Below, piece by piece: positions 1 through 11,151 of a DNA stretch of 11,151 bases; positions within the stretch are counted from its first letter, which is position 1, and every line of letters begins with the position of its first letter. Position numbers and translations under genes: made by a program. The DNA comes from a virus. Lineage: Duplodnaviria > Heunggongvirae > Uroviricota > Caudoviricetes. The stretch is from IMG/VR virus record IMGVR_UViG_2802429231_000004, positions 1 through 11,151 of that record; one strand, written 5' to 3'. The notes below the pieces were generated by a model. The model searched no databases. It had not been told where the DNA came from and saw only the letters and a list, made by a program, of their open reading frames with translations.

Positions 1-28
1 TGATGAGCTGGCAGCCTGAGTTCACAGG

Positions 29-34
29 TAAAAT
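29..34 (+). promoter_or_regulatory. Candidate -10 hexamer (TAAAAT) of a PR'-like late promoter; the -35 is poor or lies outside the window
   Basis: TAAAAT at 29-34 lies about 195 nt upstream of the tR'-like terminator U-run, matching the ~194-nt lambda 6S RNA spacing. No convincing -35 in the window. Confidence 0.25.
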
Positions 35-204
35 ACTCTCCAGGAAAACCGGGGCGGTTCAGAAAGGAAGGTGCGACCACAATTAATAACAAAATCTTAA
101 AAATTGCACATGGCACTATTAGTTTTCTAAATATTGTGTATTTTTTGTATTGCAGGATGACCCTGTAACGAAGTTTGCGTAACAGCATTTTGCTCTACGA
201 GTTT

Positions 205-234
205 GCCAGCCTCCCCCAGTGGCTGGCTTTTTTA
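205..234 (+). terminator. Rho-independent terminator, tR'-like (end of 6S-type late leader RNA)
   Basis: 7-bp GC-rich stem GCCAGCC/GGCTGGC with 9-nt loop, followed by TTTTTTAT; the 3' tail resembles the lambda tR' region. Confidence 0.6.
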
Positions 235-256
235 TGTCTGTAGCGTCAAAGCAGCA

Positions 257-355
257 ATGTCGCTGGGGCGTCGTGCAATTGGCGTTGAGCTGGAGACTGA
301 ACGTTTTGAGCAGACGGTCAGGGAAGTTCAGGATTTAGTCAGTCAGAACGGATGA
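257..355 (+). pseudogene. Possible C-terminal remnant of a DNA methyltransferase gene (about 32 codons)
   Basis: Translation MSLGRRAIGVELETERFEQTVREVQDLVSQNG matches the C-terminal GRxxIGxE...F/Y...R motif of N6/N4 DNA methyltransferases. The frame is open upstream through the terminator but shows no SAM-binding motif, so only a fragment is present. Confidence 0.3.
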
Positions 356-395
356 TATTGCAGGATTAGTTACGTACCGTTATTATCCTGCGCCC

Positions 396-471
396 GGCCC
401 TTTAGCTCAGTGGTGAGAGCGAGCGACTCATAATCGCCAGGTCGCTGGTTCAAATCCAGCAAGGGCCACCA
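396..471 (+). tRNA. ileZ: tRNA-Ile2 (anticodon CAU, lysidine type), ileX-like; tRNA-Met not strictly excluded
   Basis: 76-nt cloverleaf: acceptor GGCCCTT/AAGGGCC, D-arm TAGCTCAGTGG, anticodon loop CTCATAA, T-loop TTCAAAT, encoded CCA. Closely resembles E. coli ileX as remembered. First of the ileZ-argN-argO-type cluster of Stx phages. Confidence 0.85.
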
Positions 472-480
472 TATCACATA

Positions 481-557
481 CCGCCATTAGCTCATCGGGA
501 TAGAGCGTCAGCCTTCGAAGCTGGCTGTGCGGGGTTCAAGTCCCCGATGGCGGTCCA
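481..557 (+). tRNA. argN: tRNA-Arg (anticodon UCG; decodes CGA/CGG)
   Basis: 77-nt cloverleaf: acceptor CCGCCAT/ATGGCGG, anticodon stem TCAGC/GCTGG with loop CTTCGAA (U33, anticodon TCG, A37), T-arm CGGGG-TTCAAGT-CCCCG, encoded CCA. Confidence 0.85.
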
Positions 558-570
558 TTATCAGCATCAT

Positions 571-647
571 GCGTTGTTAGCTCAGCCGGACAGAGCAATT
601 GCCTTCTAAGCAATCGGTCACTGGTTCGAATCCAGTACAACGCGCCA
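571..647 (+). tRNA. argO: tRNA-Arg (anticodon UCU; decodes AGA/AGG)
   Basis: 77-nt cloverleaf: acceptor GCGTTGT/ACAACGC, anticodon stem ATTGC/GCAAT with loop CTTCTAA (anticodon TCT), T-arm ACTGG-TTCGAAT-CCAGT, encoded CCA. Confidence 0.85.
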
Positions 648-933
648 CACCACACTTATCTGCCCTGACTCTCTTTTGCGGGCTTTTTATTACAGGAAAG
701 ACACCGGACAGTGAAATGTTAAATGCCTCACAATTCAGGTAGTCGACTGTTGCCTGACATGCTGAGCGTTTGTTAAAAAAATCCTGCATGATGAATCCCC
801 CTGGGCGGCGGGGCATAATGACAGATGTTTGGTTGCGTATTGTATAGGCAAGTTGCGGATTCTGTCTGGTCATTGCAGAATTCACCGGGAGGCACCCGGC
901 ATCATGCTGTATACAGAGATTAGGCATATATCC

Positions 934-959
934 AGGCTCCTCATCGCAGGAGCCTTTTT
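934..959 (+). terminator. Rho-independent terminator
   Basis: Stem AGGCTCC/GGAGCCT around loop TCATCGCA, followed by a T-run (955-959). Confidence 0.55.
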
Positions 960-965
960 ACATGC

Positions 966-990
966 AAAAAAAGCCCGAGTAGGTTCGGGC
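966..990 (-). terminator. Hairpin with upstream A-run; would terminate on the minus strand, forming a bidirectional pair with the 934-959 terminator
   Basis: AAAAAAA then GCCCGA-GTAGGT-TCGGGC; on the minus strand this reads as hairpin plus T7. Confidence 0.4.
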
Positions 991-1050
991 AACAGCATGA
1001 GATACTTGCATTGTCATTTTTATCGTGTGGATTTTAACCAGGGTTTATCA

Positions 1051-1076
1051 GGCTGCGCAACTGCGTGGCCTTTTTT
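1051..1076 (+). terminator. Rho-independent terminator
   Basis: GGCTGCGC-AACT-GCGTGGCC hairpin (8 bp including two G-U pairs) followed by TTTTTT. Confidence 0.5.
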
Positions 1077-1084
1077 CATTTCTT

Positions 1085-1129
1085 GGGCTGTAGTCCCCGT
1101 GTGTCATTCAGGCTTCCGGACTACAGCCC
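1085..1129. repeat. Perfect 12-bp inverted repeat (GGGCTGTAGTCC ... GGACTACAGCCC) with 21-nt spacer, about 45 nt upstream of the nanS-p-like start
   Basis: Arms at 1085-1096 and 1118-1129 are exact reverse complements. No U-run follows, so not a canonical intrinsic terminator. Confidence 0.8.
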
Positions 1130-1172
1130 ACTCCATATCTGATTTAATACACTATCCCGGCCGGGAGGAATA

Positions 1173-3026
1173 ATGACATTTAAACATTATGATGTTGTCA
1201 GGGCGGCGTCGCCGTCAGACCTTGCGGAAAAGCTGACACACAAACTGAAAGAGGGCTGGCAGCCGTTTGGTAGTCCGGTGGCCATAACCCCTTATACCCT
1301 GATGCAGGCGATTACAGCAGAAGGTGATGTGATGGTCAGTGGTGCAACTGAGCCGGATTGGTACTACGTCATCGTACTGGCCGGGCAGTCCAATGCCATG
1401 GCTTACGGTGAAGGGCTTCCGCTTCCGGATTCATACGATGCGCCCCATCCGCGCATTAAGCAACTGGCCCGTCGTAACACAGTGACTCCCGGTGGTGAAG
1501 TATGCGTATTTAACGACATCATTCCTGCTGACCATTGTCTGCATGATGTTCAGGATATGAGTACGATTAACCATCCCCGGGCTGACCTGAGCAAAGGGCA
1601 GTACGGCTGTGTCGGACAGGGCTTACATATTGCCAAAAAACTGCTTCCGTATATCCCTAATAATGCGGGGATCCTGCTGGTACCATGCTGTCGTGGTGGT
1701 TCGGCATTCACCCAGGGCACGGAGGGGACATTCAGCGAGTCCACGGGGGCCAGTCAGGATTCGGCTCGCTGGGGAGTGGGTAAGCCGTTATATCAGGATC
1801 TGCTTTTCCGCACGAAGGCAGCATTGCAGAAAAACCCGAAAAACGTTTTGCTGGCGATATGCTGGATGCAGGGGGAATTCGATATGACGAATGCCAGTTA
1901 CGCCCAGCAGCCAGCAGCATTTCTTGCAATGGTACAGCAGTTCCGTGCTGACCTTGCCGGGCTGGCGGCGCAGTGTCACGGTGGAAGTCCGGCATCAGTC
2001 CCCTGGATTTGTGGCGACACGACATACGCGTGGAAACAAGAACACGGTACGCAATATGAAGTGGTATATGGTGCATATAAAGGTAAAGAATCCCAGCAGA
2101 TTTATTTTGTTCCCTTTATGACCGATGGTAGCGGAGTTAATACACCGACAAACAACCCGTCAGAAGATCCTGATATTGTCGGGTCTGGTTATTACGGTTC
2201 GGCATCCCGAACGAACAAAAACTGGGTATCATCAAATCGCCCGACGCATTTCAGCTCATGGGCGCGTCGTGGCATTATTCCCGATCGTATGGCAACCGCT
2301 ATTCTGAACGCAGCCGGGCGCACCTCAGCCTTCATCAGTGGTAAGGCACCGGAAATCAAACCCTCGCCCGGCGGCGACACGCCATCGGGTCCGTCTACAG
2401 ATACGTCCGTTCGCACAATCTCCCTGCTGCCGACAGCCGGAGAGGCTGCTGCGCAGGGCTGGACCATTAAGGACGGCGGAATTCAGTTGTCGGGTGGTGT
2501 ATTTAAGATCGCCAAGCAGAGCAATAAAACCTGGTCCCTGACGCGCCCGGTGGATGACGCAGTCTCCCTGCTGACACGGGGTGGCAGACTGAGCTGTAAG
2601 TTTCGACTGTCAGGCGCACTGACCAACAATCAGTTCGGTCTGGGAATTTATCTGTATACCGATGTAGCGTTACCTGACGTCGTGGCGATGACGGGTACCG
2701 GTAACCCGTTCCTGATGTCGTTCTTCACCCAGACCACAGACGGCAAACTGAATCTGATGCATCACAAGAAAGCAGGAAACACAAAGTTGGGCGAGTTCGG
2801 GAATTACAGTAACGACTGGCAGACGCTGGAGCTGGTGTTCACCGCCGGCAGTGCCACGGTTACTCCGAAACTGAATGGAGTGGCTGGCCCGGCATTCCAG
2901 GTCATAAAAGACAGTCTGACACTGGGGCTGAATGCGCTGACGCTGACGGATATTACCAAAAATGCAGCGTATGGCGTTGAGATAGAAAGTCTGGTGCTGG
3001 AGATAAATGCACCGGCATCATCATAA
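1173..3026 (+). CDS. nanS: NanS-p-like prophage sialate 9-O-acetylesterase (N-terminal DUF1737, central SGNH/SASA esterase domain, C-terminal probable carbohydrate-binding region), 617 aa
   Basis: Long ORF with SD GGGAGG 5 nt upstream. N-terminus MTFKHYDVVRAASPSDLAEKL is DUF1737-like; GQSN esterase motif in VLAGQSNAMAYGEG. Sits in the same place as the large yjhS/nanS-p ORF downstream of stx in Stx2 phages. Confidence 0.85.
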   Translation: MTFKHYDVVRAASPSDLAEKLTHKLKEGWQPFGSPVAITPYTLMQAITAEGDVMVSGATEPDWYYVIVLAGQSNAMAYGEGLPLPDSYDAPHPRIKQLARRNTVTPGGEVCVFNDIIPADHCLHDVQDMSTINHPRADLSKGQYGCVGQGLHIAKKLLPYIPNNAGILLVPCCRGGSAFTQGTEGTFSESTGASQDSARWGVGKPLYQDLLFRTKAALQKNPKNVLLAICWMQGEFDMTNASYAQQPAAFLAMVQQFRADLAGLAAQCHGGSPASVPWICGDTTYAWKQEHGTQYEVVYGAYKGKESQQIYFVPFMTDGSGVNTPTNNPSEDPDIVGSGYYGSASRTNKNWVSSNRPTHFSSWARRGIIPDRMATAILNAAGRTSAFISGKAPEIKPSPGGDTPSGPSTDTSVRTISLLPTAGEAAAQGWTIKDGGIQLSGGVFKIAKQSNKTWSLTRPVDDAVSLLTRGGRLSCKFRLSGALTNNQFGLGIYLYTDVALPDVVAMTGTGNPFLMSFFTQTTDGKLNLMHHKKAGNTKLGEFGNYSNDWQTLELVFTAGSATVTPKLNGVAGPAFQVIKDSLTLGLNALTLTDITKNAAYGVEIESLVLEINAPASS

Positions 3027-3111
3027 AAAGTGAGCCAGTCAAATGGAAGGTATCGTTAAACTCACCGGTAGTGTCAGTGGGTCGTCTGAGATGCCTGCAT
3101 GAGTTATCAGA

Positions 3112-3141
3112 GCCATCAGTACTTAACTGGTGGCTTTTTTT
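3112..3141 (+). terminator. Strong rho-independent terminator between the esterase gene and the holin
   Basis: 8-bp stem GCCATCAG/CTGGTGGC (one G-U), 7-nt loop, followed by TTTTTTT. Confidence 0.65.
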
Positions 3142-3176
3142 ATTGTTGTCAGCTTCCGGATAACGGGAGACGGGGT

Positions 3177-3392
3177 ATGTACCAGATGGAAAAAATCACA
3201 ACAGGTGTGTCATACACCACGTCAGCGGTGGGAACGGGCTACTGGTTCCTGCAGTTGCTGGACAGGGTTTCCCCGTCTCAGTGGGCGGCAATAGGCGTGC
3301 TGGGAAGTCTGCTGTTTGGGCTGCTGACATATCTGACTAACCTGTATTTCAAAATCAGAGAGGACCGGCGTAAGGCCGCCCGGGGAGAGTGA
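3177..3392 (+). CDS. S: Class II holin, phage 21 S-type pinholin (71 aa) with dual-start motif (Met1 and Met4)
   Basis: Sequence from [71 protein letters not shown] is near-identical in its C-terminal half to S21 as remembered; two TMDs. SD GGGAGACGGGG precedes ATG 3177. The track ORF from 3099 is an upstream extension through the terminator. Confidence 0.9.
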
Positions 3393-3395
3393 ATA

Positions 3396-3953
3396 ATGAA
3401 CCATGAAGAAATGAATCAGCGCTTCAGTCGCCTGGAAAATGAAATTGCTGAACTGAATAAAAAACTGTCGACGCTGATGCATTCTGAAGATGAAAAAAAA
3501 CGCCGCGATGAGCAGTTTGCTGCGTTTGACGATTATTGTCGGAAAGTGATGAGCAAAAATCTCGCAGAGTGTTTCAGTATTCATAATGATAATTTCAGTG
3601 AGCTGGAATGGGAGTGTAACCGGCCATCCTTTGTTGTATCCGGTGATGCCGGGAAAATAACCATCTCAGAAAATGGGAAAGTAACACCTCCATCGCACCA
3701 GCACAGTGAGGAGCTCATTGAATTTGCCATTGATTACCTGAAGAACAATAAAAAGCAGGGGCTGATGAAGCGCGTTGGCCGTTGCATGGGATATCTTCAG
3801 GTAGCCGCTGAGATTGAAGCGCTGGCCAGTGGTGCTGATAAGGATGCAATTGTGCGGGAGGCTCTTCTTCGTGATTTTAATACTCCACCCTTTAAAAAAG
3901 TGCCGGCTTACTGGCTTCATCCGGGGCTGACTTATCTTAAAGTGCGTATTTAG
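3396..3953 (+). CDS. Uncharacterised 185-aa soluble protein encoded between holin and endolysin (N-terminal predicted coiled coil, no TM segment)
   Basis: ATG 3396 lies 3 nt after the holin stop, with SD GGGGAGAG inside the holin 3' end (translational coupling). No motif I can assign. Looks lower in GC than the flanking lysis genes. Confidence 0.7.
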   Translation: MNHEEMNQRFSRLENEIAELNKKLSTLMHSEDEKKRRDEQFAAFDDYCRKVMSKNLAECFSIHNDNFSELEWECNRPSFVVSGDAGKITISENGKVTPPSHQHSEELIEFAIDYLKNNKKQGLMKRVGRCMGYLQVAAEIEALASGADKDAIVREALLRDFNTPPFKKVPAYWLHPGLTYLKVRI

Positions 3954-3989
3954 TGGGCCAGGGACAGCGGCTGAATATTTAATATATCC

Positions 3990-4523
3990 ATGAACACCAA
4001 AATCAAATACGGCCTGTCGGCTGCCGTTCTGGCGCTGATTGCCGCTGGTGCGTCTGCGCCTGACATTCTCGACCAGTTTCTGGATGAAAAGGAAGGCAAT
4101 CACACCACGGCATACCGTGATGGTGCAGGTATCTGGACCATCTGCCGTGGTGCCATCATGGTGGATGGCAAACCTGTCGTTCCGGGCATGAAGTTGTCGA
4201 AGGAAAAATGCGACCAGGTTAACGCCATTGAGCGTGATAAAGCGCTGGCGTGGGTGGAGAAAAACATCAAAGTGCCATTGAGCGAACCCCAGAAAGCGGG
4301 GATCGCGTCATTCTGTCCGTACAACATTGGTCCCGGTAAGTGTTTCCCGTCGACGTTTTATAAACGAATTAATGCAGGTGATCGCAGGGGAGCGTGTGAG
4401 GCGATTCGCTGGTGGATTAAGGACGGTGGCAGAGACTGCCGTATTCGTTCAAACAACTGCTACGGTCAGGTATCCCGTCGTGACCAGGAGAGCGCGCTGG
4501 CGTGCTGGGGTATCGACAGATAA
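3990..4523 (+). CDS. R: SAR (signal-anchor-release) endolysin, T4-lysozyme-like muramidase (GH24), phage 21 R-type, 177 aa
   Basis: N-terminal Gly/Ala-rich weakly hydrophobic segment YGLSAAVLALIAAGASA (SAR domain); catalytic triad spacing E-x8-D-x5-T (EGNHTTAYRDGAGIWT). No obvious SD upstream of ATG 3990. Confidence 0.9.
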   Translation: MNTKIKYGLSAAVLALIAAGASAPDILDQFLDEKEGNHTTAYRDGAGIWTICRGAIMVDGKPVVPGMKLSKEKCDQVNAIERDKALAWVEKNIKVPLSEPQKAGIASFCPYNIGPGKCFPSTFYKRINAGDRRGACEAIRWWIKDGGRDCRIRSNNCYGQVSRRDQESALACWGIDR

Positions 4524-4612
4524 GCAGAATATTTTGCTGAAAAATAAAGCATGGCCACGCGGGCGGATAACATGAAATCCTGCGAACTGGCGAAACGTAA
4601 GTGAATAAAAGT

Positions 4613-4651
4613 AAAAACCCCGTTTGTTGGCACCAAGCGGGGTTTTGTGTT
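4613..4651 (+). terminator. Rho-independent terminator-like hairpin between endolysin and spanin genes
   Basis: AAAACCCCG ... CGGGGTTTT with an imperfect inner stem, followed by a U-rich tract (TTTTGTGTTT). Confidence 0.45.
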
Positions 4652-4682
4652 TCCTGACTCCGGAAAAGTCAAAGGAGAAAGT

Positions 4683-4820
4683 GTGTTTGATTTTAGCAAA
4701 CTGATTCGGGAGATTCGAGTGATGGCTGAAAAATTATCCACCTGGAAGTTCATTCTTATCTGGCTGGTGTTTGTGATTATGGCCTCCGGTTATTTCATCG
4801 GTCAGATACGCTGGTGGTGA
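4683..4820 (+). CDS. Small hypothetical single-pass membrane protein (45 aa from GTG 4683; 32 aa if from ATG 4722)
   Basis: SD AGGAG (4673-4677) 5 nt before GTG. Product [45 protein letters not shown] has one C-terminal hydrophobic helix. Stop TGA 4818-4820 abuts the Rz ATG at 4822. Too short for the supplied ORF track. Confidence 0.4.
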
Positions 4821-4821
4821 A

Positions 4822-5286
4822 ATGAACCGCGTACTGTGCGTGGTCATCATTGCCCTGCTGGTGGCCTGTGGTGCGCTTAGTCTGGGGCTGAATCATTACC
4901 GTGATAACGCCATTACCTACAAAGCCCAGCGCGACAAAAATGTCAGAGAACTGAAGCTGGCGAACGCGGCAATTACTGACATGCAGATGCGTCAGCGTGA
5001 TGTTGCTGCGCTCGATGCAAAATACACGAAGGAGTTAGCTGATGCGAAAGCTGAAAATGATGCTCTGCGTGATGATGTTGCCGCTGGTCGTCGTCGGTTG
5101 CACATCAAAGCAGTCTGTCAGTCAGTGCGTGAAGCCACCACCGCCTCCGGCGTGGATAATGCAGCCTCCCCCCGACTGGCAGACACCGCTGAACGGGATT
5201 ATTTCACCCTCAGAGCGCGACTGATAATAATGCAAAAACAACTTGAAGGGGCACAGCTATACATTCGAGAGCAATGCCTCAGATAA
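4822..5286 (+). CDS. Rz: Rz i-spanin (inner-membrane spanin subunit), lambda type
   Basis: Near-identical to lambda Rz as remembered ([74 protein letters not shown]); N-terminal TMD. Confidence 0.95.
5042..5224 (+). CDS. Rz1: Rz1 o-spanin lipoprotein, embedded in the +1 frame of Rz
   Basis: [20 protein letters not shown] lipobox signal followed by proline-rich [15 protein letters not shown], matching lambda Rz1; fully nested in Rz. Confidence 0.9.
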
Positions 5287-5593
5287 AAACCGGCCAAGGA
5301 TAATCCGCTGAAGATTCGCCGGTGGCTAAAGTGTGCCAAGAGTTCAATTTACGCAATTACTCCTGTCGATGCTATGCACCGTCTTTGTGAAGTCAATGGA
5401 TACCTGATTTATTTCTGTGCGCTGTATCGTCGCTGTACTCTTGCATTAATTATGACTGTAGCCTGACGGGGAACTCCTTCTGCACAAGTGTGGGGGAATA
5501 ATCAAAAACGATGCACACCGGGGTTACCGGGTACACATATTTCATCATGCCAGCGAGTCCGGTTCTGGCACGGAAGAAACCGGACGTTATGAT

Positions 5594-6004
5594 TTAGTGC
5601 GGAAATATTTGTGTAGTGTTCTGAATGTTCTCAGTAAAGAGTAATGAATTATCAAAGGTATAGTAATACCTTTTGTTTTCGTGGATATTTGTAATCCATC
5701 TGAAAACCCCTGCTGTAGCAAGATTTTTCCTGTATTCGTAAAATGATAACTCTCCTGATTTGAATCCTTTTAAGGTGGCTTCTATAAGGCATTTATTTTT
5801 TGAAAATCTTACATTTACAACCTTACCCTGTCCTTTTATTAAAACCGTATTATCGTTTTCAAGAACAAGATGAATATTCTCTGTGGCTAAATAGTAAATG
5901 TAATGTGAGACATTGTGACGTTTTAGTTCAGAATAAAACCAGTGATAGTTTAAATTATTTCGCACTTTATCGAATATTTGTTTAAAAATGGCAACCTGAG
6001 CCAT
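5594..6004 (-). CDS. Hypothetical protein, possibly YbcV/YdfO-like (DUF1398) prophage family, 136 aa from the second Met; very AT-rich
   Basis: Minus-strand ORF; likely start is the ATG at 6004 with SD GAAGG 7 nt upstream (the track start at 6019 adds MEGTT). Size and C-terminal [18 protein letters not shown] resemble my recollection of DUF1398 proteins; a homologous region exists in the lambda right arm. Family assignment is from memory only. Confidence 0.6.
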
Positions 6005-6061
6005 TGTAGTACCTTCCATGTGATATGAGGGGGCGTAGTCTGCACGATTATCTAAATTGCT

Positions 6062-6295
6062 TCAATCTGGTCTGACCTGTTTTCTGAGCAATTCAGTAAT
6101 GTCACTCTTTTCTTTGTTTGCTTCAGGCGAAACTCTTTTTACTGAGCACAGTCTCCGGCGGCAGGCTTCAATGACCCAGGCTGAGAAATTCCCGGACCCT
6201 TTTTGAACAAGAGCGATGTTAATTTGTTCAATCATTTGGTTAGGAAAGCGGATGTTGCGGGTTGTTGTTCTGCGGGTTCTGTTCTTCGTTGACAT
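6062..6295 (-). CDS. Small ribbon-helix-helix (Arc/MetJ/CopG-like) DNA-binding protein, possibly YlcI/YnfO-like (DUF3950), 77 aa
   Basis: Basic N-terminus MSTKNRTRRTTTRNIRFPNQMIEQINIALVQKGSGNFSAWVIEACRRRL fits beta-strand/helix A/helix B of RHH regulators. Lies 42 nt upstream of, and co-oriented with, the 136-aa ORF. Confidence 0.65.
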   Translation of the reverse strand: MSTKNRTRRTTTRNIRFPNQMIEQINIALVQKGSGNFSAWVIEACRRRLCSVKRVSPEANKEKSDITELLRKQVRPD

Positions 6296-6494
6296 GAGGT
6301 TGCCCCGTATTCAGTGTCGCTGATTTGTATTGTCTGAAGTTGTTTTTACGTTAAGTTGATGCAGATCAATTAATACGATACCTGCGTCATAATTAATTAT
6401 TTGACGTGGTTTGATGGCGTAGATGCACGTTGTGACATGTAGATGATAATTATTATCATTTTGCGGGTCCTTTCCGGCGATCCGACAGGTTACG

Positions 6495-6506
6495 GGGCGG
6501 CGACCT
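6495..6506 (+). other. cos: cosN cohesive-end sequence (GGGCGGCGACCT) of a lambda-type cos site; cosQ-like sequence upstream and cosB downstream towards the small-terminase gene
   Basis: Exact lambda 12-nt cohesive end, preceded by GATCCGACAGGTTACG (lambda right-end sequence) and followed by CGCG..TTTTC.CTATTTATGA (lambda left-end-like). Confidence 0.85.
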
Positions 6507-6543
6507 CGCGCGTTTTCACTATTTATGAGATTTTTTGAGGGGG

Positions 6544-6555
6544 TGGTTGTTGTTT
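6544..6555 (+). repeat. cosB-region repeat TGGTTGTTGTTT (copy 1); candidate small-terminase binding element
   Basis: Exact 12-mer repeated at 6681-6692, with an inverted 9-mer ACAACAACC at 6604-6612, all between cosN and the small-terminase start. Confidence 0.4.
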
Positions 6556-6680
6556 AATTGTTTGGTATATCTAATTGATAAGTAAGGTGAAAATAAAATA
6601 AATACAACAACCTTACGATGTGTTTTGATGTCGTCAATGCAAAAAATGTCAATGATATCAAATGGTTTTGCAAAAACACA

Positions 6681-6692
6681 TGGTTGTTGTTT
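6681..6692 (+). repeat. cosB-region repeat TGGTTGTTGTTT (copy 2)
   Basis: Identical to the 6544-6555 12-mer; lies 31 nt upstream of the predicted small-terminase start. Confidence 0.4.
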
Positions 6693-6722
6693 CGCTTTTT
6701 ATCGATGACTTATGGAGAGGAG

Positions 6723-7229
6723 ATGGCCTTTTTATTGAATAAAAGTGATATGGCCTCCTCCATCGGTATCTCTGTTCAGGCATTTGATAAATGGGGCGTT
6801 CCTCCTGTTGAACGTCGGGGGAGGGAAGTTTTATATGACGTTAAAACTGTACTGGAGATAGATCGCGAGCGGCGACAACACAATCAGAGAACACCTGATG
6901 ACGGGGGAGAACTGGAGGAAAGGCTGCTTCGGGCCAGAGCTGAACTGACAGAAGAACAGGCTGTAGCTCAAAAACTTAAAAATCAGGTAACCGAAGGTAA
7001 GCTCATCGATTCAGACTTCTGCGTTTTCGCCCTCAGCAAACTGGCGATGGCATTGTCCAGTACGCTTGATTCCATTCCGTTATCCATGCAGCGACAGTTC
7101 CCGGATTTAACGCCACGTCATATTGACCATCTGAAAACCCTTATTGCAAAGGGGGCAAATCAGTGTGCGCGGGCAGGGGATAAATTACCGGATTTACTCG
7201 ATGAATATATCAGAGCAACAACTGAATAA
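6723..7229 (+). CDS. nu1: Terminase small subunit (Nu1 family), 168 aa
   Basis: C-terminal half aligns with lambda Nu1 as remembered (FCVFALSKLAMALSSTLDSIPLSMQRQFPDL..HIDHLK vs FCTFVLSRIAGEIASILDGLPLSVQRRFPEL..HVDFLK). Start chosen at ATG 6723 with SD GGAGAGGAG; the track ORF from 6618 is an extension across cosB. Overlaps the large-subunit start. Confidence 0.85.
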   Translation: MAFLLNKSDMASSIGISVQAFDKWGVPPVERRGREVLYDVKTVLEIDRERRQHNQRTPDDGGELEERLLRARAELTEEQAVAQKLKNQVTEGKLIDSDFCVFALSKLAMALSSTLDSIPLSMQRQFPDLTPRHIDHLKTLIAKGANQCARAGDKLPDLLDEYIRATTE

Positions 7230-9129
7230 TATGATGGCTGCCGTTTCGGTTGCGCTGCAGCCTCTGGTCAGGGTTGTACCAATGACGGCAGTTGAATGGG
7301 CTGATCAAAATTATTATCTGCCTAAAGAATCTTCATATGGTGAGGGAGAATGGAAAACGCTGCCATTCCAGATCGCCATTATGAACTGTATGGGTAACGA
7401 CCAGGTTCGCACGGTTAACCTGATTAAATCTGCCCGTGTTGGCTATACAAAGATGTTGCTGGGGGTGGTCGGGTATTTTATTGAGCATAAATCCCGAAAC
7501 AGTCTGCTTTTTCAGCCCACGGATTCTGCCGCTGAAGATTTTATGAAGTCTCACGTGGAGGCGACGATTCGGAACGTGCCATGCCTGAAAGACCTTTCCC
7601 CATGGCTGGGGCGTAAACATCGTGACAATACTCTCACGCTGAAACGCTTTTCATCGGGCGTCGGTTTCTGGTGCCTGGGCGGCGCTGCCGCCAAAAACTA
7701 CCGTGAAAAATCCGTGGACGTGGTCTGCTATGACGAACTTTCCTCGTTCGAGCCGGATGTCGAAAAAGAGGGCTCGCCAACCCTGCTGGGGGATAAGCGT
7801 ATTGAGGGGTCGGTGTGGCCAAAATCCATTCGCGGCTCGACGCCTAAAATCAAAGGCACCTGCCAGATCGAAAAAGCCGCTAACGAGTCGGCGCATTTTA
7901 TGCGTTTTTATGTGCCCTGCCCGCACTGTGGGGAGGAGCAGTATCTGAAATTTGGCGATGAGTCCACGCCTTTTGGGCTTAAATGGGAGAAGGACAGCCC
8001 TGAAAGTGTTTTCTACCTCTGTGAACATCATGGCTGCGTGATCCATCAGTCTGAACTGGACCAGAGCAACGGGCGGTGGATCTGTGAAAACACGGGCATG
8101 TGGACCCGTGACGGTCTGACGTTTTTCAGCGCCCGGGGTGATGAAATTCCGCCGCCGCGCTCCATCACGTTCCATATCTGGACGGCGTACAGTCCGTTCA
8201 CCACCTGGGTACAGATTGTCTATGACTGGCTGGATGCACTGAAAGATCCCAACGGCCTGAAAACCTTTGTGAACACCACGCTGGGCGAGACCTGGGAAGA
8301 GGCCGTGGGCGAAAAACTCGATCACCAGGTACTGATGGATAAGGTGGTGCGTTACACGGCGGCGGTGCCTGCCCGGGTGGTTTATCTGACGGCGGGCATT
8401 GACTCGCAGCGAAACCGTTTTGAGATGTATGTCTGGGGATGGGCTCCGGGAGAGGAAGCCTTTCTGGTGGATAAAATCATCATTATGGGGCGTCCTGATG
8501 AGGAAGAGACGCTGTTACGTGTGGATGCGGCGATCAACAAAAAATACCGCCATGCGGATGGCACCGAAATGACTATTTCCCGTGTCTGCTGGGACACCGG
8601 GGGGATCGATGGTGAAATTGTTTATCAGAGATCAAAAAAACACGGTGTTTTCCGGGTGCTGCCGGTAAAAGGCGCATCTGTCTATGGCAAGCCGGTGATC
8701 ACCATGCCAAAAACCCGCAATCAGCGGGGCGTGTATCTGTGTGAAGTGGGAACGGACACCGCAAAAGAAATTCTCTATGCCCGTATGAAAGCCGATCCCT
8801 CGCCTGCGGATGAAGCCACGTCGTATGCCATCCGTTTTCCTGATGATCCGGAGATTTTTTCGCAGACAGAGGCGCAGCAACTGGTGGCGGAAGAGCTGGT
8901 GGAGAAGTGGGAAAAAGGAAAGATGCGTCTGCTGTGGGATAACAAAAAGCGGCGTAACGAAGCGCTGGACTGCCTGGTGTATGCCTACGCGGCATTACGT
9001 GTGTCCGTGCAACGCTGGCAGCTTGATCTGGCTGTACTGGCAAAATCCCGGGAAGAAGAGACGACCCGGCCAACCCTGAAAGAACTGGCAGCGAAGCTGT
9101 CCGGAGGAGTGAATGGTTACAGTCGCTGA
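7201..9129 (+). CDS. A: Terminase large subunit (gpA family), 642 aa
   Basis: MNISEQQ start and strong collinear similarity to lambda gpA (TAVEWADQNYYLPKES, VGYTKMLLGV, CPHCGEEQYLKFGD, TTLGETWEE, ALDCLVYAYAALR). The track ORF from 7144 is an upstream extension. Confidence 0.95.
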   Translation: MNISEQQLNNMMAAVSVALQPLVRVVPMTAVEWADQNYYLPKESSYGEGEWKTLPFQIAIMNCMGNDQVRTVNLIKSARVGYTKMLLGVVGYFIEHKSRNSLLFQPTDSAAEDFMKSHVEATIRNVPCLKDLSPWLGRKHRDNTLTLKRFSSGVGFWCLGGAAAKNYREKSVDVVCYDELSSFEPDVEKEGSPTLLGDKRIEGSVWPKSIRGSTPKIKGTCQIEKAANESAHFMRFYVPCPHCGEEQYLKFGDESTPFGLKWEKDSPESVFYLCEHHGCVIHQSELDQSNGRWICENTGMWTRDGLTFFSARGDEIPPPRSITFHIWTAYSPFTTWVQIVYDWLDALKDPNGLKTFVNTTLGETWEEAVGEKLDHQVLMDKVVRYTAAVPARVVYLTAGIDSQRNRFEMYVWGWAPGEEAFLVDKIIIMGRPDEEETLLRVDAAINKKYRHADGTEMTISRVCWDTGGIDGEIVYQRSKKHGVFRVLPVKGASVYGKPVITMPKTRNQRGVYLCEVGTDTAKEILYARMKADPSPADEATSYAIRFPDDPEIFSQTEAQQLVAEELVEKWEKGKMRLLWDNKKRRNEALDCLVYAYAALRVSVQRWQLDLAVLAKSREEETTRPTLKELAAKLSGGVNGYSR

Positions 9130-9319
9130 ACTGCAGGCGCTGCGTCAGGCGCGCCTTGATTTATTAACCGGTAAACGGGTGGTGTCTGTCCAGAAAGATG
9201 GTCGCAGAATTGAATATACGGCGGCTTCTCTGGATGAGCTTAACCGGGCGATCAATGATGCGGAGTCGGTACTGGGGACAACCCGGCGTCGCCGTCGTCC
9301 GCTGGGAGTGAGGTTATGA
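9113..9319 (+). CDS. W: Head-tail joining protein gpW, 68 aa
   Basis: Similar to lambda gpW (LTGKRVVSVQKDGRRIEYTAASL vs [23 protein letters not shown]); SD GGAGGAG upstream; start overlaps the terminase end. Confidence 0.9.
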   Translation: MVTVAELQALRQARLDLLTGKRVVSVQKDGRRIEYTAASLDELNRAINDAESVLGTTRRRRRPLGVRL

Positions 9320-10908
9320 AACGAACGCCTGTCCTGATTGATGTGAACGGCGTTCCGCTTCGTGAGAGTCTCAGCTACAACGGGGGCGGTGCAGGATTTG
9401 GCGGGCAAATGGCGGAGTGGTTGCCACCGGCGCAGAGTGCCGATGCAGCCCTGCTGCCTGCGTTGCGTCTGGGGAATGCCCGGGCAGATGATCTGGTGCG
9501 CAATAACGGAATAGCGGCCAATGCGGTGGCACTGCATAAGGATCACATTGTCGGGCATATGTTTCTTATCAGCTACCGTCCGAACTGGCGCTGGCTGGGG
9601 ATGCGGGAGACCGCAGCAAAAAGCTTTGTCGATGAGGTGGAGGCGGCCTGGCCGGAATACGCCGAAGGGATGTCTGGCGAGATCGACGTGGAAGGAAAAC
9701 GCACGTTCACGGAATTTATCCGTGAAGGTGTGGGCGTTCATGCGTTTAACGGCGAAATCTTTGTGCAGCCGGTCTGGGATACGGAAACCACGCAGTTATT
9801 CCGTACGCGTTTTAAAGCCGTGAGTCCGAAACGGGTGGACACGCCAGGACACGGTATGGGGAACCGTTTTCTGCGGGCCGGGGTGGAGGTCGATCGATAT
9901 GGCCGTGCCGTTGCGTACCATATCTGTGAGGATGATTTTCCTCGCTCCGGGAGTGGACGATGGGAACGGATCCCGCGTGAACTTCCCACCGGGCGTCCGG
10001 CCATGCTGCATATTTTCGAGCCGGTGGAGGACGGGCAGACCCGTGGGGCCAACCAGTTTTACAGCGTCATGGAACGGCTGAAGATGCTCGATTCCCTGCA
10101 GGCAACACAGCTTCAGTCGGCCATTGTGAAAGCCATGTATGCAGCGACGATTGAAAGTGACCTTGATACCGAAAAGGCCTTTGAATATATCGCCGGTGCG
10201 CCGCAGGGGCAGAAGGATAATCCGCTTATTAATATTCTGGAGAAGTTCTCCACCTGGTATGACACGAATAACGTGACGCTGGGTGGTGTCAAAATTCCGC
10301 ACCTTTTCCCCGGGGATGATCTGAAACTACAGACTGCGCAGGATTCAGACAATGGATTTTCGGCGCTTGAACAGGCGCTGCTGCGGTATATCGCCGCCGG
10401 TCTTGGCGTTTCCTACGAACAGTTGTCCCGTGATTACTCGAAGGTCAGTTATTCAAGTGCCAGGGCCTCTGCCAATGAGTCGTGGCGCTATTTTATGGGG
10501 CGGCGAAAATTTATTGCGGCCCGGCTGGCCACGCAGATGTTTTCCTGCTGGCTGGAAGAGGCACTTCTTCGGGGGATTATCCGTCCGCCACGGGCGCGTT
10601 TTGATTTTTATCAGGCGCGATCAGCCTGGTCACGGGCAGAGTGGATTGGTGCCGGAAGAATGGCCATTGACGGGCTCAAGGAGGTTCAGGAATCGGTGAT
10701 GCGCATTGAGGCCGGACTGAGCACGTATGAGAAAGAGCTGGCGCTGATGGGCGAGGATTATCAGGACATTTTCCGCCAGCAGGTCAGGGAATCTGCAGAG
10801 CGGCAAAAAGCCGGACTCTCACGTCCGGTGTGGATAGCGCAGGCGTATCAGCAGCAGATAGCGGAGAGTCGCAGGCCGGAAGAGGAGACAACACCCCGTG
10901 AGACGTAA
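9316..10908 (+). CDS. B: Portal protein gpB, 530 aa
   Basis: Collinear similarity to lambda gpB (GNARADDLVRNNG, FEPVEDGQTRGAN, LQSAIVKAMYAATIES, LLRYIAAGLGVSYEQLSR, GRMAIDGLKEVQE); ATGA overlap with the W stop. Confidence 0.95.
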   Translation: MKRTPVLIDVNGVPLRESLSYNGGGAGFGGQMAEWLPPAQSADAALLPALRLGNARADDLVRNNGIAANAVALHKDHIVGHMFLISYRPNWRWLGMRETAAKSFVDEVEAAWPEYAEGMSGEIDVEGKRTFTEFIREGVGVHAFNGEIFVQPVWDTETTQLFRTRFKAVSPKRVDTPGHGMGNRFLRAGVEVDRYGRAVAYHICEDDFPRSGSGRWERIPRELPTGRPAMLHIFEPVEDGQTRGANQFYSVMERLKMLDSLQATQLQSAIVKAMYAATIESDLDTEKAFEYIAGAPQGQKDNPLINILEKFSTWYDTNNVTLGGVKIPHLFPGDDLKLQTAQDSDNGFSALEQALLRYIAAGLGVSYEQLSRDYSKVSYSSARASANESWRYFMGRRKFIAARLATQMFSCWLEEALLRGIIRPPRARFDFYQARSAWSRAEWIGAGRMAIDGLKEVQESVMRIEAGLSTYEKELALMGEDYQDIFRQQVRESAERQKAGLSRPVWIAQAYQQQIAESRRPEEETTPRET

Positions 10909-11095
10909 TCTTTCACACATTATTGCCGCAGCATTCAATGAACCGCTGCTTCTGGAGCCCGCCTATGCGCGGGTTTTCTTTTGCGCGCTCGGGCGCGAGA
11001 TGGGGGCAGCAAGTCTTTCGGTACCACAGCAGCAGGTACAGCTTGATGCTCCCGGAATGCTGGCTGAAACGGACGAGTACATGGCCGGAGGGTAA
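10898..11095 (+). pseudogene. C: gpC-like (prohead protease/scaffold) N-terminal ORF ending after 65 codons; truncated, frameshifted or replaced
   Basis: GTG start overlaps the portal stop as in lambda. The first ~30 residues (HIIAAAFNEPLLLEPAYARVFFCAL) match the lambda gpC N-terminus; the sequence then diverges and hits TAA at 11093-11095. The window ends 56 nt later. Confidence 0.45.
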
Positions 11096-11151
11096 GCGGC
11101 TCGTCAGAACCGTATTGATATTTACTGAGAGCTCAGATCAACTTTCCAGGG

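Follow-up and report, generated by a model that had tools for sequence, protein, structure and literature searches.

A probable domain-shuffled member of the YdfR-slot family between the holin and endolysin genes of a lambdoid prophage

Lysis cassettes of the phage 21 type can carry a further gene in the slot between the holin and the endolysin (R). We analyzed ORF185, an open reading frame (ORF) of 185 codons that occupies this slot in IMG/VR virus record IMGVR_UViG_2802429231_000004 (positions 1 to 11,151; this whole stretch of 11,151 nucleotides (nt) is called the window below). The gene already has entries as a RefSeq hypothetical protein and under PHROG 1085; it belongs to the class of mosaic accessory genes in lambdoid late operons. 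Profile and alignment comparisons indicate that ORF185 is very probably a domain-shuffled member of the slot family founded by YdfR of prophage Qin: it combines a coiled-coil module (module C) with a conserved C-terminal domain, named D1 here, and lacks the DUF1327 domain. We read its product as a late, cytoplasmic, oligomeric accessory binding protein and a member of a modular slot family, a blended reading to which we give a probability of about 0.5. That the protein is late, cytoplasmic and accessory is probable; a role for D1 as a binding module connected with RNA or RNase E is a tentative and rather doubtful suggestion.

ORF185 is a true gene and not a chance ORF, because its protein is identical to WP_001015161.1 of Escherichia coli O55:H7 DEC5D, because it is intact in 38 of 82 loci, and because its whole-gene ratio of nonsynonymous to synonymous substitution rates (dN/dS) is 0.18–0.23 against alleles 95–96% identical in DNA. 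These 82 loci were recovered through D1 (80 from IMG/VR, 2 from GTDB genomes). The initial annotation had described the junctions, composition and fold class of the gene from the sequence alone, and all of these descriptions hold. The holin stop codon (TGA, 3390–3392) is followed by three nucleotides (ATA) and the ORF185 start, which is served by a Shine-Dalgarno sequence (SD) inside the holin 3′ end, and ORF185 ends 36 nt before an endolysin whose AT-rich leader (ending ...GAATATTTAATATATCC) contains no purine-rich SD. GC content is lower in ORF185 (45.0%) than in the holin (54.6%) or endolysin (53.9%) gene, as is GC at third codon positions (44.6% vs 66.7% and 60.1%); the dip is moderate though real, and GC is lowest in the N-terminal third (40%). 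The product is soluble (maximum 19-residue Kyte-Doolittle mean 0.75, grand average of hydropathicity −0.63), and its coiled-coil heptad, F10-L13-I17-L20-L24-L27, has 3-4-3-4-3 spacing. Neither a transmembrane or hydrophobic segment (Kyte-Doolittle) nor a holin-family match (Pfam and PHROGs scans) was found, and ORF185 does not qualify as an antiholin or membrane-bound lysis regulator. No promoter-like site was detected upstream of it on the plus strand.

The initial annotation had seen no recognizable motif in the protein. This stands for Pfam and NCBIfam, which, like PADLOC, returned only sub-threshold coiled-coil noise (e.g. Relaxase_C, HLH), but not for PHROGs, where ORF185 matches PHROG 1085 (function unknown; E = 8.1e-113, 377.7 bits) over profile positions 117–296 of 296. 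The uncovered positions 1–116 are the DUF1327/YdfR domain, which long PHROG 1085 members (268–329 amino acids (aa)) carry at their N terminus. DUF1327 (PF07041) is absent from ORF185 even at E ≤ 0.1, whereas long relatives match it at E = 4e-45, and Stx2-86 gp05 and Stx2_95 BCI50300 both do so at about 1e-45. Alignment of database relatives resolved the slot family into an optional DUF1327 domain (module A), an optional linker (module B), a coiled coil and then the helix SEDEKKRRDEQFAAFDDYC (module C), and a C terminus that is D1, an unrelated domain D2, or missing. ORF185, flanked by the class II holin and lysozyme genes of a lambdoid lysis cassette, is best described within this scheme as module C plus D1. 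Its N-terminal module is also found in slot proteins with D2 or without a C-terminal domain, and aa 1–62 alone match slot proteins of Stx2_14744, Stx1_499, PhiR12 and 2H10 (tblastn). Among 41 family members scanned, no domain other than DUF1327 in the long forms was consistently detected.

The closest relatives of ORF185 are extended YdfR-family proteins in the same slot, namely gp05 of Stx2-converting phage 86 (Stx2-86; YP_794052, 268 aa), Stx2_95 BCI50300 (329 aa) and the 296-aa E. coli protein P0034. Like ORF185, they start 3–4 nt after the same type of holin and end 36 nt before R. Their D1 is 83–99% identical to that of ORF185, whose C-terminal 115 residues are nearly unchanged in Stx2-86 gp05 and the Stx2_95 protein, and the 296- and 329-aa forms also have its coiled coil and linker; the extended forms differ in carrying DUF1327 and a linker of ~30 aa, both of which ORF185 lacks. 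Qin YdfR (E. coli K-12, P76160, 103 aa, DUF1327) has the same slot position but no sequence in common with ORF185; in the K-12 gene order, ydfR lies between essQ and rrrQ. The initial view of a known slot with an unknown occupant was thus right about the ydfR slot, but the occupant is the non-YdfR part of extended YdfR-family proteins, which occupy the slot in many Stx and lambdoid phages. The D2 proteins Stx2_14744 BCI49172 (161 aa) and Stx1_499 BCI49509 (263 aa) share the N-terminal module, slot and junction with ORF185 (BCI49172 is 90% identical over aa 1–62); their D2 is unrelated to D1, and the divergence starts right after a conserved linker. Annotation hides some of these genes. The Prokaryotic Genome Annotation Pipeline (PGAP) calls the intact 296-codon gene of E. 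coli JCM 5491 (NZ_AP035801.1; 1053–1943 in our locus L020), which encodes YdfR, coiled coil and D1, a 336-nt pseudogene ("YdfR family protein, incomplete, missing C-terminus") and leaves D1 unannotated. Many E. coli genome matches without annotation look like the same artefact.

D1 is conserved well beyond its closest relatives. Family alignments yielded eleven invariant residues (L115, G128, R129, L134, Q135, A137, P165, K167, W173, P176 and Y180) and the motif GRCMGxLQVAAEIE ... DFxxPPFK ... W..PG..YLK.RI. The ten invariant residues from G128 to Y180 are all present in ORF185, and the invariant residues persist in Salmonella and metagenome homologs at 27–33% identity. AlphaFold2 (AF2) modeling depended on alignment depth: 21 sequences from E. 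coli only gave a predicted local distance difference test (pLDDT) score of 50, and 41 sequences including Salmonella and metagenome relatives gave a mean of 82, with D1 at 85–96. The latter model places N-terminal helices at residues 3–28 and 31–59, matching the coiled coil, and predicts D1 to comprise three short strands within 79–97 followed by helices at 101–117, 123–145, 151–161 and 178–184. The cysteine of GRCMG is replaced by serine or alanine in some members, which argues against a catalytic thiol. The profile and structure searches proposed with the initial annotation found no characterized family in Pfam, NCBIfam, PADLOC, PDB or Foldseek searches: the best Foldseek hits had E = 0.6 (BFVD) and 2.4 (PDB), the PDB sequence profile search gave only coiled-coil noise (E ≥ 0.04), zero families of the PADLOC-DB 2.0 defence models matched at E ≤ 1, and no similarity to any toxin, enzyme or adhesin was detected (Pfam, NCBIfam, PDB profile, Foldseek). 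We also considered D1 as a diverged duplicate of the YdfR domain, since both begin with strands and then a helix, and rejected this (hhalign probability 0.2%).

The two halves of ORF185 have different histories. Relative to the 296-aa long form of JCM 5491, codons 71–185 differ by one synonymous change (synonymous rate dS 0.013), whereas codons 1–62 show dS 0.64 and dN 0.24. Downstream of the conserved in-gene linker, the window is nearly identical to that long form; upstream of it, the window groups with a short-form lineage (loci L004 and L018), and D2-type genes diverge completely downstream of the linker. By these alignments, it is at this linker that 5′ and 3′ modules are exchanged. The first ~40 codons of ORF185, starting MNHEEMNQR, come from a separate short-form lineage that also heads 209–221-aa proteins at 47–72% identity. 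Short forms of 185–221 aa fall into several diverged sublineages, all of which start MN(H)EEMNQR. We therefore rejected ORF185 as a recent deletion derivative of the long form, since its 5′ end represents a distinct, widespread lineage; together with the near-identity of D1 to the long form, this separate 5′ lineage points to a recombinant of long-lived modules. D1 is under purifying selection, with a dN/dS of 0.15–0.39.

Of 5426 complete E. coli genomes, 811 contained a match to the ORF185 gene (250 with coverage of 80% or more), and carriers of D1-type slot genes include enterohaemorrhagic E. coli (EHEC) and O55:H7 lineages and Shiga toxin (Stx)-converting phages. In the 82 D1 loci, the gene starts 3–4 nt after an S21-type holin, always unless frameshifted, and the 36-nt distance to R is kept in ~70. 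The 185-aa form accounts for the 38 intact copies mentioned above, all with the same junctions, and the 296-aa form for 29. To survey slot occupants as the initial annotation had suggested, we used a second sample, chosen through the holin (71 loci in which the holin is 97% identical or more and R lies within range). YdfR-only genes (86–176 aa) were the commonest occupants (~35 loci), D1-type genes filled ~23 slots and D2-type genes 2, and in 11 loci the slot was empty, with the holin 1–4 nt from R. Because the same holin occurs with S (the holin gene) and R adjacent in these 11 loci, an ORF185-type gene is dispensable for the lysis cassette. The idea that ORF185 is a cargo or accessory gene in a phage-21-type cassette is borne out by these empty slots and by its distinct composition and mosaic structure. 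Occupant kind did not covary with holin or R alleles, and the same S and R alleles were found with every kind of occupant, which lends no support to a specific partnership of ORF185 with S or R.

A full-library profile search recovered only 42 cluster representatives; named database matches were from E. coli and Salmonella enterica, the genome scan added Shigella, and a few more diverged relatives came from unassigned sequencing-run assemblies. GTDB species-representative genomes contributed only two loci, from E. coli and Shigella, and say little on range. Salmonella and distant relatives (27–42% identity) retain a DUF1327-like N terminus, the coiled coil and D1, and sit just 5′ of the holin, with Q on their other side, next to holins of two different families. 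P0135 (184 aa), also a distant relative, is again a short form that has just the coiled coil and D1. A convergent gene of ~104 aa comes after the D1 gene in Stx2-86, Stx2_12E129, a Salmonella locus (L009) and a metagenome locus (L183). These partners form one family, phrog_1853 (function unknown; 38–77% identity), and may constitute a conserved two-gene module with D1. The partner is absent from the window, where only the 36-nt spacer precedes R, and is present in 1 of the 82 D1 loci. On the minus strand of the window, a 145-codon ORF with a GTG start (3666–4103) overlaps the 3′ half of ORF185 as well as the beginning of R; it had no database support and no phrog_1853 match and was taken as a chance ORF. 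Unlike this antisense ORF inside ORF185, the phrog_1853 genes lie downstream of the D1 gene. Other slots (PhiR12_2, vB_EcoS-783R2) hold unrelated antisense ORFs.

Slot occupancy changes what precedes the R start. Where the slot is empty, 4 nt separate the holin stop from R, which then uses the same GGGGAGAG inside the holin gene that serves ORF185 in the window. In occupied slots, whatever the occupant, the R leader is AT-rich and has no SD (loci L103–L182 and the window compared). The slot gene thus sits on the initiation site that the endolysin uses in empty-slot cassettes, and any occupant displaces R from it. The SD-less endolysin start, which the initial annotation had noted for this cassette, is a property of every occupied slot. 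With R displaced, its translation would depend on SD-less initiation or on re-initiation after the slot gene. An occupant could in this way lower or delay endolysin synthesis relative to holin in cis, whatever its protein does, and cargo insertion would be a simple way to retune the endolysin:holin ratio.

We hypothesize that synthesis of ORF185 is confined to the late phase, with the Q-antiterminated late transcript as its template and in step with the holin, that the protein remains cytoplasmic, and that it oligomerizes through its N-terminal zipper. The expectation of co-production with the lysis genes is supported in the sense that the gene is placed for co-translation with the holin. D1 would then bind protein or nucleic acid and would be neither an enzyme nor part of the membrane or peptidoglycan machinery; long forms would tether it to a YdfR domain that docks on RNase E or RNA, and ORF185 would supply it untethered. 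A literature search on ydfR, DUF1327 and lysis-cassette morons turned up functional data for Qin YdfR only, and no work dealing with D1 or with genes that lie between S and R. Residues 1–72 of Qin YdfR are reported to bind the N-terminal catalytic half of RNase E, and the protein co-purifies with RNA, although its overexpression has little effect on the transcriptome (2026 study, PMC13232886). In a separate screen, ydfR was listed among genes raising the minimum inhibitory concentration of streptomycin threefold (PMC12924614). Because D1 is tethered in long forms to this reported RNase E- and RNA-binding domain, we would expect the family to act on late RNA or in host takeover rather than in lysis. 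Phage-encoded modulation of RNase E by a small protein acting on the N-terminal catalytic half is known from T4 Srd. Srd may serve as an analogy for the long forms only, as there is no sequence relationship and ORF185 has no docking domain.

Several observations weigh against this interpretation. ORF185 lacks YdfR aa 1–72, and the RNase E link may therefore not apply to it. D1 has no sequence or fold relative in Pfam, NCBIfam, PDB or BFVD, and expression data for ORF185 were looked for and none were found. The conserved holin-adjacent position in three lineages could reflect a lysis-related role. About 10 of the 82 D1 loci are frameshifted or truncated (including L060–L062, L096–L099 and L102); in these the longest ORF reaches 158 or 134 aa, and its start lies 83–590 nt beyond the holin. 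Several such copies indicate that an ORF185-type gene is not strongly constrained everywhere.

Other functions can be envisaged. One, which we consider unlikely as a whole, is a modular late-phase system in which YdfR docks RNase E or RNA, the coiled coil homo- or hetero-oligomerizes, and the swappable D1 and D2 domains are effectors. If all of this held, D1 would be a new fold with a new activity, e.g. in host takeover or in countering abortive infection at lysis, the convergent phrog_1853 protein would antagonize D1 where present, and ORF185, as a free-standing D1 effector, might use its zipper to pair with YdfR-coiled coil proteins from lambdoid prophages resident in the same cell. A trans-acting, cytoplasmic regulator of lysis timing, acting on pinholin triggering or on export or release of the SAR (signal-anchor-release) endolysin, would fit production in step with the holin, the fact that ORF185-type genes in E. 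coli invariably begin 3–4 nt past the holin stop, and the location of distant homologs immediately 5′ of holin-lysozyme-Rz cassettes with two holin families. Yet ORF185 has no transmembrane segment, holins at least 97% identical work with empty, YdfR-only, D1 and D2 slots, and R alleles show no association with the occupant. In work from the Young laboratory, phage 21 reportedly lyses cells with an S-R-Rz cassette that has no such gene. We regard such a regulator as distinctly improbable. The extreme mosaicism and module swapping within one slot, the GC content below that of the neighbors, and the resemblance of the D1–phrog_1853 pair in four lineages to a two-gene module would suit an arms-race gene, either anti-defence against abortive infection that senses late events or defence and exclusion against other phages. 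This, too, is distinctly improbable, given that no PADLOC model matched, that the phrog_1853 partner is missing from the window, and that anti-defence genes are usually expressed early. Moreover, with no detected promoter of its own and a start coupled to the holin, ORF185 is unlikely to be expressed in the lysogen; a lysogen-expressed defence or exclusion factor is disfavored on these grounds and by the lack of a PADLOC match.

Alternatively, the protein could be inert, a decaying remnant of the long form that acts only in cis by carrying ribosomes from the holin to the SD-less R. The dependence of R on the holin SD in empty slots and its lack of an SD in all occupied ones agree with this, as do the 158- and 134-aa frameshifted copies and the frequency with which PGAP leaves D1 unannotated. 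A remnant is nevertheless highly improbable: D1 keeps its low dN/dS and eleven invariant residues down to 27–33% identity, several diverged short-form sublineages exist, the short coiled coil plus D1 form recurs in the distant P0135, and AF2 models D1 confidently. Least credible of all is an effector released at lysis, like Stx and the esterase NanS-p encoded upstream. ORF185 is a late-operon neighbor of nanS-p and is soluble, and if expressed late it would be most abundant at lysis; however, it resembles no toxin, enzyme or adhesin, and the long forms possess the domain reported to bind RNase E, which is a cytoplasmic enzyme. We retain the reading of ORF185 as a late, cytoplasmic accessory binding protein.

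The surrounding genes are those of a phage-21-type cassette, with an S21-family holin, a SAR-helix lysozyme with an E-D-T triad, and Rz/Rz1 (Table 1); its pinholin behavior is putative and predicted from sequence. The holin matches PF04971 (Phage_holin_2_1, E = 2.3e-32), and RefSeq annotates a 216-nt coding sequence as class II holin. A longer, mechanically called 97-codon ORF starting at 3099 was rejected as the holin in favor of the 71-codon ORF from 3177. A terminator-like hairpin with a T-run (3109–3137) lies between the esterase and the holin, inside the longer ORF, which supports 3177 as the true start. R has a Gly/Ala-rich N-terminal helix (aa 8–24), and its E35, D44 and T50, as read from the translation, correspond to the phage 21 R positions. 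The gap between R and Rz, which holds the ant gene in Stx phages, contains a strong intrinsic-terminator-like hairpin (4614–4646; 13 pairs, then GTGTTT) and a 45-codon ORF that stops 1 nt short of the Rz start codon.

The window represents late-region DNA of a lambdoid prophage that resembles Stx phages. Its gene coordinates were converted from the RefSeq annotation of the E. coli O55:H7 DEC5D locus, where the gene order agrees with the window and the ORF185 DNA is 100% identical. The tRNA trio resembles the ileZ-argN-argO genes that precede stx in Stx phages. No stx gene was found in the window between the tRNAs and the esterase at 1173, and with this arrangement of tRNA trio and NanS-p-type esterase the prophage looks like a stx-negative relative of Stx phages. 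Two small RNAs (sRNAs), STnc100 and AgvB, occupy the place where stx would sit. Between the lysis genes and the terminase, an AT-rich minus-strand island with a DUF1398 gene and ynfO looks like a moron cluster; the PHROG 413 label "head protein" for the DUF1398 protein seems doubtful because of the position and orientation of its gene.

Table 1. Features of the slot gene, its lysis cassette and the rest of the window (positions refer to the window unless a locus is named).
Feature	Position	Strand	Details
ORF185 (WP_001015161.1, slot gene)	3396–3953	+	ATG to TAG (3951–3953), 185 aa
Shine-Dalgarno GGGGAGAG	3383–3390	+	Inside holin 3′ end; serves ORF185
N-terminal helical module	3396–3575	+	aa 1–60; heptad zipper aa 10–27, then helix SEDEKKRRDEQFAAFDDYCRKV
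Conserved in-gene linker	3511–3583	+	~73 nt; common to all slot-gene lineages (DNA alignment)
D1 domain	3606–3950	+	aa 71–185, ~115 aa; basic (pI 9.3)
AT-rich spacer	3954–3989	+	36 nt, no SD; before R ATG at 3990
Phage-21-type class II holin (putative pinholin type)	3177–3392	+	71 codons, dual-start MYQM motif
SAR-type lysozyme R (endolysin)	3990–4523	+	177 aa; PF00959, E = 2.4e-24
45-codon GTG ORF	4683–4820		Good SD AAAGGAGAA; RefSeq hypothetical WP_000459345.1
Rz spanin	4822–5286	+	PF03245, E = 1.4e-52
Rz1	5042–5224		Embedded in Rz, +1 ORF; lipobox-like LVVVGC
phrog_1853 genes	L002 4214–4528; L008 2154–2468; L009 5809–6126; L183 585–902	− (all)	
DNA methylase C-terminal fragment	242–355		Just 5′ of tRNAs; pseudogene in DEC5D annotation
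Three tRNA genes	396–647		Anticodons CAT, TCG, TCT; first is tRNA-Ile per RefSeq
sRNA STnc100	757–965	+	Rfam, gathering score, 175.6 bits
sRNA AgvB (anti-GcvB)	966–1025	−	Rfam, 56.2 bits, at threshold; abuts STnc100
SASA/NanS-p-type esterase	1173–3026		Upstream of holin
DUF1398 and ynfO (YlcI/YnfO, DUF3950) pair	5594–6295	−	GC 32–45%, AT-rich
Small terminase subunit	6723–7229		
Large terminase subunit	7201–9129		
Head-tail joining protein	9113–9319		
Portal	9316–10908		

Our understanding of lysis is unchanged by these results, and mosaic genes without a known role abound in lambdoid phages. What is new is the domain dissection of the slot family, the recognition that its short forms lack a YdfR domain, the recombination joint inside the gene, the conserved pairing of D1 and phrog_1853 genes, and the displaced Shine-Dalgarno sequence. 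The dissection also explains an annotation error, the labelling of intact 296-aa genes as truncated YdfR pseudogenes. About 15% of complete E. coli genomes carry D1-type slot genes, which are placed for production alongside the lysis proteins, at the time when Stx phages release toxin. A hypothetical protein, ORF185, can now be assigned to a modular YdfR-slot family in which a conserved domain stands without a structural match.

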